Shown here one piece after another: positions 8,475 to 12,453 of a stretch of DNA of 64,000 nucleotides; the stretch's first letter is position 1; each line of letters opens with the position of its first letter. The position numbers were made by a program, and so were the translations under genes. The notes beneath the pieces are model-generated. The model did not search any database. It worked only from the letters and a program-made list of their open reading frames with translations, and had not been told where the DNA came from. This DNA comes from Escherichia coli (GTDB taxonomy: Bacteria; Pseudomonadota; Gammaproteobacteria; Enterobacterales; Enterobacteriaceae), in assembly GCF_003334405.1 (NCBI RefSeq), contig NZ_QOWM01000003.1; one strand, 5' to 3'.

Positions 8475-10781
8475 ATGTTTAAGGCCAGGAATTGCGGCTG
8501 GATACGTTTACTGCCCCTGTTTATGCTGAGTCTACCAGTACAGGCGGAACTTCGATGTGTTGCAAATGCAGTTGATATTGAATCATTTTTTTCTGCGGCT
8601 ACCGCTGAAGATAAACAACAAGTTGAACAAGCTATCAACAGTAGCGTGAATCTTGTCCCCTTCGGTTTATCTGCATCGAACTGGAAAGTGCATCGTGGCG
8701 ATTTAGTGGTAGAAGGTAATATAGAGAGTAATCAAAAATTGATTGTTCTTGGGAATTTGACAGTCAAAGGTAATATTTCCACTTTCTCTCTTTCTAATCC
8801 ATGGGTTATTCTCGGTAACGTGACGGCAACGAATATAGTTGCGGATTCACCACTGTTAATTACCGGTTCGATAAATGCAAGTGGACTGGTATTTATCGAC
8901 TCATATTACGATAATCCGTCTACGATTAAGGGGAGTATTAATGCGCGTGGGATATTTATCAATGACATAATTGCACCTGTTGTTGCGTCTTCGACAAATA
9001 GTGAATTCATGGTCCGTGCGAGTGACAAACATGACACTGAAAATGTCAAAAAAGCGCTGATGATAATAAATCCTGATGCATATTATTGGGGGCTAATTAA
9101 TGATGAAGATGCTCTGAAAGAAATTTTTAAGCGAAGCAATATTCGCATGGCAGGGAATGTCTGTAATCAGATGAAAAAAGAAGCGCTGTTTCGCCCTAAG
9201 CCTTCTCCTGAGTTAGTGCAAGAATTGCAAATGCTGGATGAAGGCAAAGTTGCTGCATTTGAAGGACGAGACATTGCGACATTTGATCTTGCCGTAATGC
9301 GAACTCTCCCAAGGCTTAAAGGAATTTCAGCTAACCTACGCAAACAACTTATTAATAGCAATGATGAACAAACGATTGAAAGTATGGCGAGATATATGCC
9401 TGACAATGAGATTCTGGAGTTGACCGATCAGCAATTGGGTTACCAGCCTGTTGTTCTGGGGTTGCTCGACCGTGAACCGCTCTCTGTCGAAATAATGACG
9501 CGAATGAGTCGTCTACCTGATGGTGTCGGTCCGTTGAATCTTGCGCTACGTGAAAATCTCCCTCTGGATATCGTCATGACTCTGGCGAAAAGAGATTGGG
9601 ATATGATCATTCAGGAGCTTTATAAAGATGCGTGGTTATTGCCTGAATCCATTATTGATGGCTATATCCGCAGTGATGATTCCTCTATTCGTCAGGTCGG
9701 TGCTGGAGGACAACTCACCTACAATCAGGCAATGCAGTTGGCGAACGATTCATCAAACAATGTTGTCACAAGCTTAGCGTTCAAGCTGGCAGAGATGAAA
9801 CACCATGGTCAATTGTTGCGGATGACGCCACAAGAGAGTGACAAAGTTGCAGGCTATTTATACCAAAAATTCGAGAATGACGATGATCTAATACGTGTGT
9901 TATTTTTAGCATTGCCAGATAACTTACAGTTTAATTTTGTTAAAAGGATGGAGAAAAAATCCCCGGCCTACTTTTGCTGTCGGGATATGCAGGTAATTCA
10001 CTCTGACGCTGCTTTACAACGGTTATTGACACGTTTCAACGATCCTGAAGGGTGGAGTAATCTGGCGAAAAATCAGTATCTGAGCACGTCGATGAAACAA
10101 AAAATTTGGCAACGTGCTTTATCGCATCGGAAAAATAATCCGAAAGCAGATTCAGATGCATATGAAACCAGCGCTGATATGATTTTGTCTGAGCTGATTA
10201 GCCACGGCGAAGTTGATGACCAGATGCTATTAAATGCCACCGCCCTGATACGTTCGGACGACTGGGACTTTTTAGAGAGTGCATTAATTAGTTGGGATAA
10301 TTTACCCGCTGTTGTTCTCAAGGAATTACAGCAAAACACGCCACGCAATGATATTTGGGCGAAGTTTTTTCTGAGGCAGGAAAACAGTTCCCGTGCGCAG
10401 GTTGACGAAGCGTTACGTGTTTATTATGCACTAGACCCCGATGCGTTAGCACAACTGGATGTACTGGCAAAACAACCGGATCGTATATGGTGGAGTACAC
10501 TGGCGAAAAGCAATCTCACATTTTTCAAGTTCGGCGCACTTAACAACCGCCACACACCGCCTGCAGTACTGGCGGCAGAAATTGATCCCGAGTGGTGGAT
10601 TGTGGCGATGAATAATCCCCGTTTTCCAGTTGATGTATTAAAGGCGAGGCTGAAACGTGATCCTTTGCTGGCGTTAGAGCTTGTTAACCCTGAACTGGAT
10701 TTAGTCCGCCAGCTGGCGCTTAACGGTAAGACGCGCGCAATACGGGAACAAGCGATGAGAAAACTTGATGAGTTGTATTGA
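8475..10781 (+). CDS. ydbD: Large secreted protein of unknown function (N-terminal signal, beta-helix-like repeat region, alpha-helical C-terminal part)
   Basis: ORF track (GTG at 8469, ATG at 8475); signal-like N-terminus LLPLFMLSLPVQA; repeated motifs of the form GN-hydrophobic-x-hydrophobic. Confidence 0.8.
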   Translation: MFKARNCGWIRLLPLFMLSLPVQAELRCVANAVDIESFFSAATAEDKQQVEQAINSSVNLVPFGLSASNWKVHRGDLVVEGNIESNQKLIVLGNLTVKGNISTFSLSNPWVILGNVTATNIVADSPLLITGSINASGLVFIDSYYDNPSTIKGSINARGIFINDIIAPVVASSTNSEFMVRASDKHDTENVKKALMIINPDAYYWGLINDEDALKEIFKRSNIRMAGNVCNQMKKEALFRPKPSPELVQELQMLDEGKVAAFEGRDIATFDLAVMRTLPRLKGISANLRKQLINSNDEQTIESMARYMPDNEILELTDQQLGYQPVVLGLLDREPLSVEIMTRMSRLPDGVGPLNLALRENLPLDIVMTLAKRDWDMIIQELYKDAWLLPESIIDGYIRSDDSSIRQVGAGGQLTYNQAMQLANDSSNNVVTSLAFKLAEMKHHGQLLRMTPQESDKVAGYLYQKFENDDDLIRVLFLALPDNLQFNFVKRMEKKSPAYFCCRDMQVIHSDAALQRLLTRFNDPEGWSNLAKNQYLSTSMKQKIWQRALSHRKNNPKADSDAYETSADMILSELISHGEVDDQMLLNATALIRSDDWDFLESALISWDNLPAVVLKELQQNTPRNDIWAKFFLRQENSSRAQVDEALRVYYALDPDALAQLDVLAKQPDRIWWSTLAKSNLTFFKFGALNNRHTPPAVLAAEIDPEWWIVAMNNPRFPVDVLKARLKRDPLLALELVNPELDLVRQLALNGKTRAIREQAMRKLDELY

Positions 10782-10951
10782 TCCACAACGTAATGTTTTT
10801 TAACTATCTGATTAATTGGGGATAATCATTCCTGACAGTGAGTCCCCAATACCTTGATATATTCTGAATTTTTAATGAAACGGCGTGTTGCGATATCTCC
10901 GTCAGGGGAATTGATGCACCATAGCGCAAACCGAATTATCAAGGATTGATA

Positions 10952-11557
10952 ATGACGCTCTACCAGATAAAACCGCTCTTTCAGTCGCTGTTAAGGCCGA
11001 CGATGTTTTGGCTTTATAAGCACCACGTTACAGCGAATCACATCACTCTTGCTGCACTGGCGCTTTCTCTTCTTACCGGATTGCTGTTGATGTTGGCGGC
11101 ACAACCCATCCTCTTTTTGCTATTGCCCATCGTGCTTTTTATCCGTATGGCGCTCAATGCGCTGGATGGCATGTTGGCGCGTGAGTGCAACCAGCAAACA
11201 CGTCTGGGGGCGATTTTGAATGAGACTGGCGATGTTATTTCCGAAATTGCGCTCTATTTACCATTTTTATTTTTACCGGAAAGTAACGCATCACTCGTGA
11301 TACTCATGTTATTTTGCACCATATTGACCGAGTTTTGCGGTTTACTCGCGCAGACGATTAACGGTGTTCGCAGTTATGCCGGTCCATTTGGCAAAAGCGA
11401 TCGCGCGTTAATATTTGGTCTGTGGGGTCTGGCCGTTGCCATTTATCCACAGTGGATGCAGTGGAATAATCTTTTATGGAGCATTGCTTCAATTCTGCTT
11501 CTCTGGACTGCGATTAATCGTTGTCGGAGTGTGCTTCTTATGAGCGCTGAAATATAA
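10952..11557 (+). CDS. ynbA: CDP-alcohol phosphatidyltransferase family membrane protein
   Basis: ATG at 10952 preceded by aagga; multi-pass hydrophobic protein; stop overlaps ynbB start (TAATG). Confidence 0.8.
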   Translation: MTLYQIKPLFQSLLRPTMFWLYKHHVTANHITLAALALSLLTGLLLMLAAQPILFLLLPIVLFIRMALNALDGMLARECNQQTRLGAILNETGDVISEIALYLPFLFLPESNASLVILMLFCTILTEFCGLLAQTINGVRSYAGPFGKSDRALIFGLWGLAVAIYPQWMQWNNLLWSIASILLLWTAINRCRSVLLMSAEI

Positions 11558-12453
11558 TGCTGGAAAAATCTCTGGCAACACTTTTCGCGTTGTTAATTTT
11601 AGCAACGCTGATAAACCGTTTTCTGCTATGGCGGTTACCGGAGAGAAAAGGGGGTGAGGTTACATTACGTATTCGTACCTGGTGGGGCATCGTCATTTGT
11701 TTTTCAATGGTGATTTCAGGTCCACGCTGGATGACGTTGACGTTTTTTGCGCTGATAAGTTTTCTGGCATTGAAAGAATATTGTACGCTTATATCTGTAC
11801 ATTTTCCGCGTTGGTTATATTGGGGTATTCCTCTTAACTATTTGCTTATCGGTTTTAATTGCTTTGAGCTGTTTCTGTTATTTATACCTTTGGCTGGGTT
11901 TCTGATATTAGCCACCGGGCAAGTTTTAGTGGGTGACCCCTCTGGTTTTCTGCATACCGTGAGCGCCATTTTTTGGGGCTGGATAATGACCGTTTTCGCC
12001 TTGAGTCATGCCGCCTGGTTATTAATGTTGCCAACCACAAATATCCAGGGCGGGGCGTTACTGGTGTTATTTCTTTTGGCATTAACCGAGTCAAACGATA
12101 TTGCACAGTATTTATGGGGAAAATCCTGCGGCAGAAGAAAAGTGGTCCCTAAAGTCAGCCCGGGAAAAACATTGGAAGGTCTGATGGGCGGCGTCATCAC
12201 CATCATGATTGCGTCACTGATTATCGGACCGTTACTGACACCGCTAAATACATTACAGGCATTATTAGCGGGTTTGTTAATTGGTATTAGTGGTTTTTGC
12301 GGCGATGTCGTGATGTCAGCCATCAAACGAGATATTGGTGTTAAAGATAGCGGAAAACTATTGCCAGGACATGGCGGACTCCTTGACAGGATTGACTCAT
12401 TAATTTTCACCGCTCCGGTATTTTTTTATTTTATACGCTACTGCTGTTACTGA
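11557..12453 (+). CDS. ynbB: CdsA-like CTP:phosphatidate cytidylyltransferase paralogue
   Basis: 298 aa membrane ORF; C-terminal region resembles the CdsA signature region; translationally coupled to ynbA. Confidence 0.85.
   Translation: MLEKSLATLFALLILATLINRFLLWRLPERKGGEVTLRIRTWWGIVICFSMVISGPRWMTLTFFALISFLALKEYCTLISVHFPRWLYWGIPLNYLLIGFNCFELFLLFIPLAGFLILATGQVLVGDPSGFLHTVSAIFWGWIMTVFALSHAAWLLMLPTTNIQGGALLVLFLLALTESNDIAQYLWGKSCGRRKVVPKVSPGKTLEGLMGGVITIMIASLIIGPLLTPLNTLQALLAGLLIGISGFCGDVVMSAIKRDIGVKDSGKLLPGHGGLLDRIDSLIFTAPVFFYFIRYCCY

Follow-up and report, generated by a model that had tools for sequence, protein, structure and literature searches.

The gene ydbD of Escherichia coli lies at positions 8475 to 10781 on the + strand of a 64,000-nucleotide stretch of contig NZ_QOWM01000003.1 (assembly GCF_003334405.1), which was analyzed here and is referred to as the window. 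It encodes a protein of 768 amino acids in which a small right-handed beta-helix is predicted to be joined to a long alpha-solenoid. The reading we favor, to which we give about an even chance, is that YdbD is a Sec-exported, nonenzymatic scaffold or adaptor, in which a capped, bactofilin-like beta-helix is combined with a long LRV-type solenoid that binds a partner in the envelope. A leader of 24 residues would be removed upon Sec export, leaving the mature protein in the periplasm. Mature YdbD would then comprise a small helical N-terminal subdomain, a beta-helix of approximately six turns, and an LRV/HEAT-type solenoid of approximately 520 residues. The solenoid may offer a protein or glycan of the envelope a long surface to bind to, and the beta-helix may act as a rigid docking or self-association module.

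The open reading frame (ORF) list of the window places this gene on the + strand from 8469 (GTG) or 8475 (ATG) to 10781. A Shine-Dalgarno motif read from the sequence, GGAG at 8466 to 8469, precedes the ATG at 8475 by 5 nucleotides. Its spacing supports a start at 8475 and a product of 768 codons plus stop, as had been proposed in an earlier interpretation made from the letters alone (the sequence-only reading). The corresponding RefSeq entry is WP_000910026.1, with the product name "DUF2773 domain-containing bactofilin," and the ydbD genes of several E. coli strains are 100% identical to the window DNA. In a K-12-like chromosome, ydbD is flanked upstream by pdxI (synonymous with ydbC) and downstream by ynbA to ynbD, which confirms the position between ydbC and the ynb operon that had been described for it.

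The N terminus of YdbD shows the n/h/c architecture of a signal peptide, in agreement with the sequence-only reading. An n-region containing K4, R5, and R11 is followed by the h-region LLPLFMLSLPV and the c-region VQA, after which the sequence continues with E25. Judged by the heuristic of a tripartite leader with small residues at −3 and −1, residues 1 to 24 (8475 to 8546, + strand) are a predicted Sec signal peptide with cleavage after VQA. The same residues were disordered in the structural model, with a predicted local distance difference test (pLDDT) value below 50. A lipoprotein was considered and rejected, as no lipobox precedes C28. Using a hydrophobicity heuristic, a leader was recognized in 22 of 37 full-length relatives. 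Three more were borderline by eye and two were added after correction of their start codons, giving at least 27 of 37. For the latter two, which are the closest homologs outside Escherichia (P0039 and P0041; L002, 7923 to 8001, and L003, 7947 to 8001), the start had been called too far downstream, and an upstream in-frame Met restored clear leaders (MLKLNILTGCIIMIGLNSFA... and MAKVGWFIPLLLTGVFIMASFSAAA...). The occurrence of a leader in most relatives, combined with the two miscalled starts, suggests that it is a conserved feature of the family.

The hydrophobic N terminus could alternatively be an uncleaved anchor or targeting segment, as in canonical membrane-associated bactofilins, which would leave YdbD in the cytoplasm or attached to the inner membrane. 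We consider this improbable. The leader is complete, E25 being preceded by a V-Q-A site, and its h-region of approximately 11 residues is too short for a transmembrane helix, whereas the membrane-targeting peptides of bactofilins are short amphipathic motifs and not Sec-type leaders. In favor of a cytoplasmic or anchored protein, bactofilins are typically cytoplasmic and N-terminally membrane associated (PMC12448750), and in 10 of the 37 relatives the protein as called lacks a signal peptide. Against this, two relatives that appeared to be signal-less regained a leader from the upstream Met.

Structure prediction, which the sequence-only reading had proposed as a check, returned a beta-helix and no characterized enzyme family, which is not the outcome named there as speaking against it. 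The full-length AlphaFold2 model, built from a 51-sequence alignment, had a pLDDT of 88.8 and a predicted template modeling score (pTM) of 0.78. A separate model of the N-domain (residues 25 to 205), built from a 76-sequence alignment, had values of 90.1 and 0.87, respectively. Directly after the leader, both models contain a small subdomain of residues 25 to 66 (8547 to 8672, + strand) with a helix at 44 to 57, which was predicted confidently (pLDDT of 93 to 95 in blocks of residues 31 to 50) and probably caps or packs against the beta-helix. The right-handed beta-helix itself spans residues ~67 to 185 (8673 to 9029, + strand) and has three strands per turn and approximately six turns of ~19 to 22 residues, with short strands grouped in threes between residues 70 and 181. 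The sequence-only reading had placed a beta-helix-like block within the N-terminal 150 residues; the fold was recovered by AlphaFold2, but the extent has to be shifted. A transition region of residues 186 to 245 (9030 to 9209, + strand), which includes a low-confidence loop at 207 to 223 and a conserved L-F-R motif, leads into an alpha-solenoid of short helix pairs at residues ~246 to 768 (9210 to 10778, + strand). In accordance with the long alpha-helical region noted earlier, 43 helices were modeled in residues 188 to 767, with helix starts ~12 to 14 residues apart and pairs of ~25 to 28 residues. The left-handed hexapeptide beta-helix of acyltransferases and gamma-carbonic anhydrases does not describe the fold predicted for YdbD.

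The beta-helix is mirrored by a nonrandom sequence pattern. All three Gly/Asn-hydrophobic stretches quoted by the sequence-only reading are present in the translation, and residues 81 to 153 contain six copies of the motif G[NS][ILV], against 0.63 expected from shuffles of this region. None of 5,000 regional shuffles and none of 2,000 whole-protein shuffles reached six. Ungapped self-similarity was highest at a lag of 39 residues, or approximately two turns, but exceeded shuffled sequences by only ~1.7 standard deviations. This weak periodicity indicates a degenerate structural repeat and not a recent tandem duplication or a clean sequence repeat.

The model was compared with solved and predicted structures to place the beta-helix among known folds. 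Bactofilins (PF04519/IPR007607), such as Caulobacter BacA, Thermus TtBac, and Helicobacter CcmA, are defined by a compact right-handed triangular beta-helix of ~110 amino acids (PMC12448750). Their ~100 to 110 residues, approximately six turns, and Gly-rich corners are shared by YdbD, and the solved structures superposed on its predicted helix over nearly their full length, with scores of 10.4 for BacA (2n3d; 2.4 Å, 98 of 103 residues) and 10.2 for TtBac (6ria; 1.9 Å, 86 of 89 residues). However, generic beta-helices scored equally well or better. These were tapirin (6n2b; score of 11.9, 2.6 Å, 115 residues), the putative pectinase 3lyc (11.5, 3.1 Å, 120 residues), the Pet passenger (4om9; 11.5, 3.6 Å, 121 residues), and HxuA (4i84; 11.3, 2.7 Å, 118 residues). 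The modeled helix of YdbD is thus of bactofilin size and shape, but by these scores it is inseparable from other minimal right-handed beta-helices. When the AFDB50 database was searched with Foldseek, the self-hits from E. coli were followed by bactofilin-annotated "polymer-forming cytoskeletal proteins," with E values from 5e-5, template modeling (TM) scores of 0.55 to 0.65, and 16 to 30% identity. Small three-sided right-handed beta-helices are also found in the C-terminal domain of MinC and the beta-solenoid of FapA, where they are used for dimerization or partner binding. Both of these proteins are cytoplasmic and have other architectures, and their sequence scores against the isolated domain of YdbD were not significant (Pfam MinC_C, E = 2.3; FapA, E = 0.54).

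The likeness to bactofilins is carried by the fold and not by the sequence. The bactofilin idea is not new, since it coincides with the existing public annotation; fragments of ydbD in databases are likewise named "polymer-forming cytoskeletal protein" or, alternatively, "protein involved in detoxification of methylglyoxal." The sequence-level basis of the bactofilin annotation is thin. The Pfam Bactofilin model PF04519 did not match significantly, with an E value of 0.05 (14.3 bits) for the full protein and 0.009 (16.6 bits) for the isolated domain, and at an E value of ≤1e-3 this hidden Markov model (HMM) matched 0 of 51 family members and 0 of 76 N-domain sequences. A family profile found nothing significant among PDB sequences, with BacA at an E value of 1.3, and a PDB sequence search with the single YdbD protein was equally negative. 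An N-domain profile run against 5.8 billion proteins reached JGI-named "CcmA (bactofilin family)" entries at an E value of ~1e-4. This transitive link was rejected as evidence, as none of these entries has PF04519 among its precomputed hits and the sequences resemble tail fibers. The term bactofilin is therefore valid for the fold of YdbD only, and sequence membership of PF04519 is not demonstrable. The sequence-only reading, which had noted a resemblance to bactofilins or polymerizing beta-helix proteins, is supported by the predicted fold, with the reservation that the Pfam match is not significant.

Beyond the compact helix, YdbD departs from what defines a bactofilin. In characterized bactofilins, which are typically cytoplasmic or membrane associated, the regions on either side of the helix are disordered and a short peptide at the N terminus targets the membrane (PMC12448750); these proteins are 4 to 7 times smaller than YdbD. 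In the model of YdbD, by contrast, the helix is flanked by a folded N-subdomain and a solenoid of ~520 residues and preceded by a predicted Sec-type signal peptide. Likely compartment, flanks, and architecture thus set YdbD apart from characterized bactofilins, in addition to the lack of a significant HMM match.

These differences bear on whether YdbD could be a genuine polymer-forming bactofilin that operates outside the cytoplasm, which we regard as unlikely. The size, handedness, and geometry of the helix would suit such a protein, as would the RefSeq name, the bactofilin-annotated AFDB neighbors, and the fact that PF04519, although weak, is the top Pfam match for the beta-helix region. To our knowledge, every bactofilin characterized to date acts at the cytoplasmic face of the membrane. 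A precedent for a periplasmic filament is CrvA of Vibrio cholerae, a filament-forming structural protein, but CrvA is coiled-coil rich, unlike the beta-helix of YdbD. Periplasmic shape-determining polymers of Vibrio are termed "periskeletal" in PMC8938487. Apart from the sequence scores, three observations argue against a polymer. In the model, both ends of the helix run into confidently folded regions, which suggests capped ends and a probable block to end-to-end stacking. An expression level below 1 part per million (ppm) is hard to square with a structural polymer. Finally, a natural allele dispenses with half of the helix. In this 711-amino-acid form (P0013 and relatives, ~86% identical), a segment of 57 residues at ~100 to 156 (8772 to 8942, + strand) is lost in frame, such that LGNLTVKGN is joined directly to NARGIFIND. 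The deletion lies between repeated KGN/KGS motifs and removes approximately three of the six turns. The RefSeq name of this allele omits "bactofilin."

No catalytic motif had been evident to the sequence-only reading, and searches of Pfam, NCBIfam, PADLOC, and PDB sequences likewise returned no enzyme family. In NCBIfam, the only response was a MinC echo (NF001819; E value of 0.012 and 15.1 bits, where the curated cutoff is 273), and PADLOC gave no match. Neither the family HMM nor the catalytic loop residues of a pectate-lyase-like or CASH enzyme were found in YdbD. An enzymatic role, in methylglyoxal detoxification or as a beta-helical carbohydrate-active enzyme, is therefore very improbable in our view. 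The helix is minimal, with ~19 residues per turn, and has none of the long active-site loops of pectate-lyase-like enzymes. YdbD is apparently exported, whereas the metabolite methylglyoxal is cytoplasmic. The database name that mentions methylglyoxal stems from a transposon screen published in 2007 (Kim et al., J Microbiol 45:339; cited in PMC13313352). A phenotype in such a screen may arise indirectly and does not amount to a biochemical activity. In favor of an enzyme are the invariant H73 and D76 of an H-x-G-D-L motif at residues 73 to 77 (8691 to 8705, + strand), on the first rung of the beta-helix. In an alignment of 15 full-length relatives, H73, G75, D76, L77, G93, G99, G114, and R240 were among the invariant positions, and F239, which forms the L-F-R motif with R240, was nearly invariant. 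The G, D, and L of H-x-G-D-L were invariant or nearly so in the 76 N-domain sequences as well.

The proposed binding function would reside in the solenoid. The last three solenoid repeats, residues 688 to 768 (10536 to 10778, + strand), coincide with Pfam DUF2773 (PF10971), which was matched over its full length (E value of 2.3e-45, model positions 1 to 81 of 81). A Foldseek search of the PDB with the full model returned only ARM/HEAT solenoids, namely, designed ARM proteins, transportin, importin-beta, PP2A-A, and CAND1, with E values of ~1e-4 and low TM scores (0.1 to 0.29). Such low scores indicate that the repeat type is held in common, and not that a specific homolog or the overall superhelix has been found. 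LRV/HEAT solenoids (PF01816, PF25591, and PF13646) share with YdbD the short helix pairs seen in its model. Repeat HMM matches and the LAxDxxxxVR signature occur in relatives, whereas E. coli YdbD itself has no LRV or HEAT match in Pfam and only DUF2773 at its C-terminal end.

Relatives of YdbD are rare outside Escherichia. A word-indexed search returned sequences from Escherichia only (E. coli and E. albertii, 80 to 100% identity), and phmmer, run exhaustively against 1.84 billion representatives, yielded 157 matches. Approximately 35 of these are full-length relatives of 710 to 820 amino acids with 21 to 31% identity, mostly from metagenomes, together with a Pseudomonas metagenome-assembled genome (MAG) and Undibacterium. 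Their consensus has W-x-x-H-x-G-D-L at the first rung and retains Gly at turn positions, and LAxDxxxxVR recurs throughout the C-terminal two-thirds. When 51 relatives were searched singly with Pfam, LRV_2 was found in 11, LRV in 8, DUF2773 in 8, and HEAT_2 in 2. One relative matched FapA at an E value of 8e-4. The Pseudomonas MAG (JBEVDL010000099.1; L004) carries tandem full-length paralogs of 764 and 768 amino acids at 5581 to 7875 and 8001 to 10307, the first of which has faint LRV/HEAT matches. A genome-wide scan with subfamily alignment A4 gave one partial locus in Streptomyces.

In many relatives of 200 to 500 amino acids, homology is confined to residues ~68 to 165, that is, to the beta-helix. 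In these short proteins (P0098 to P0183), the beta-helix module is fused to LRR (two proteins), ankyrin (one), DUF285 (one), or LRV repeats, all of them protein-binding, and in no case to a catalytic domain. The module is sometimes present twice in one protein (P0098, P0134, and P0156). The YdbD-type beta-helix is a mobile module without a Pfam family of its own. The arrangement suggests that a module for docking or association is kept constant while the binding module varies.

Several observations weigh against an exported, nonenzymatic adaptor. The export call for YdbD is a heuristic reading of its leader, and its putative "secreted" status derives from this predicted signal peptide. In 10 full-length relatives, the protein as called lacks a hydrophobic stretch at its N terminus, such that some members of the family could be cytoplasmic. 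The gene neighborhoods of seven distant homologs had nothing in common, such that genomic context supports no partner; among the neighborhoods examined, linkage to ynbABCD was confined to Escherichia. The conserved H73/D76 and the F239-R240 pair could mark an unrecognized functional site. Lastly, the induction of ydbD by sigmaE, which is one of the hints at an envelope role, comes from a single study, and no match to a sigmaE-type promoter (GAACTT-N15-18-TCNAA) was found.

Within E. coli, ydbD is an accessory gene. It was detected in 3,991 of 5,426 complete genomes (74%), compared to 4,334 for ynbB and 5,211 for pdxI, and the segment ydbD-ynbAB (window positions 8475 to 12453) is variable. The guanine-plus-cytosine (GC) content of ydbD is 40 to 45%, against ~52% in its flanks. 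In NZ_CP096976.1 (L010), an insertion sequence, IS1, takes the place of ydbD-ynbA-ynbB, and ydbA is absent too; another strain carries IS5 inside ydbD. In the window, the autotransporter gene ydbA (1576 to 7344) is an intact ORF of 1,922 amino acids with long internal passenger repeats, and in the K-12-like strain (L001) it is interrupted by IS2 and IS30.

Low GC content, accessory status, and the ydbA autotransporter adjoining ydbD would also be compatible with a secreted or surface adhesin or effector, whose beta-helix and eukaryote-like ARM/HEAT repeats would bind host or surface targets. Such a role seems to us quite unlikely, as YdbD contains no beta-barrel, two-partner secretion (TPS), or other secretion domain, and no dedicated secretion genes are conserved beside its homologs in the seven neighborhoods. 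Right-handed beta-helix adhesins and passengers, such as tapirin (6n2b), Pet (4om9), HxuA (4i84), and EtpA (8cpk), have far longer helices and dedicated secretion domains. Their identity to YdbD was 9 to 14%, with no family HMM match.

A terminator-like hairpin with a 10-bp stem and a T-run follows pdxI/ydbC at 8422 to 8447 (+ strand) and ends 28 nucleotides ahead of the ydbD ATG. No sigma70-like promoter was found between this hairpin and the ATG. Given the strong hairpin and no such promoter after it, transcription of ydbD must either continue from pdxI or start at a promoter that lies ahead of the hairpin, which fits the very low expression reported for ydbD. The spacer between ydbD and ynbA (10782 to 10945; 164 nucleotides) contains a hairpin without a T-run, TTGGGGA...TCCCCAA, at ~10818 to 10851, and its overall fold is ordinary (z score of −1.07). 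As no terminator was called in this spacer, cotranscription of ydbD with ynbABCD is possible. Scanning the intergenic flanks against Rfam and folding them turned up nothing.

Published data provide scattered hints at a role in the envelope. Overexpression of sigmaE increased ydbD expression 3.9-fold (PMC2731931). A set of six proteins that are present at less than 1 ppm, but whose disruption lowers fitness in minimal glucose, includes both YdbD and YnbB (bioRxiv 10.1101/038851), and YnbB, encoded by the neighboring gene, is a CdsA paralog that is able to raise levels of the glycolipid MPIase and is thereby linked to its synthesis (PMC6362211). In addition, ydbD is among the targets of YciT identified by ChIP-exo, and ydbD and ynbC were both mildly upregulated in a hipQ strain.

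A bolder interpretation would be that YdbD and its rare relatives form an extracytoplasmic branch of the bactofilin superfamily, in which beta-helices stack or form filaments in the periplasm and the LRV-solenoid arms organize envelope components, for example, products of the adjacent ynbABCD lipid and MPIase-related genes. We regard this as a long shot. If it were true, YdbD would be a "periskeletal" element in E. coli.

The practical value of these findings is modest, as ydbD is accessory, barely expressed, and already annotated as a bactofilin. Their main contribution is to separate what the label "bactofilin" establishes for this protein from what it does not. A bactofilin-shaped helix that follows a signal peptide and continues into a long binding solenoid would extend the bactofilin fold to the periplasm, and it would offer a handle on one of the remaining genes of unknown function in E. 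coli K-12.

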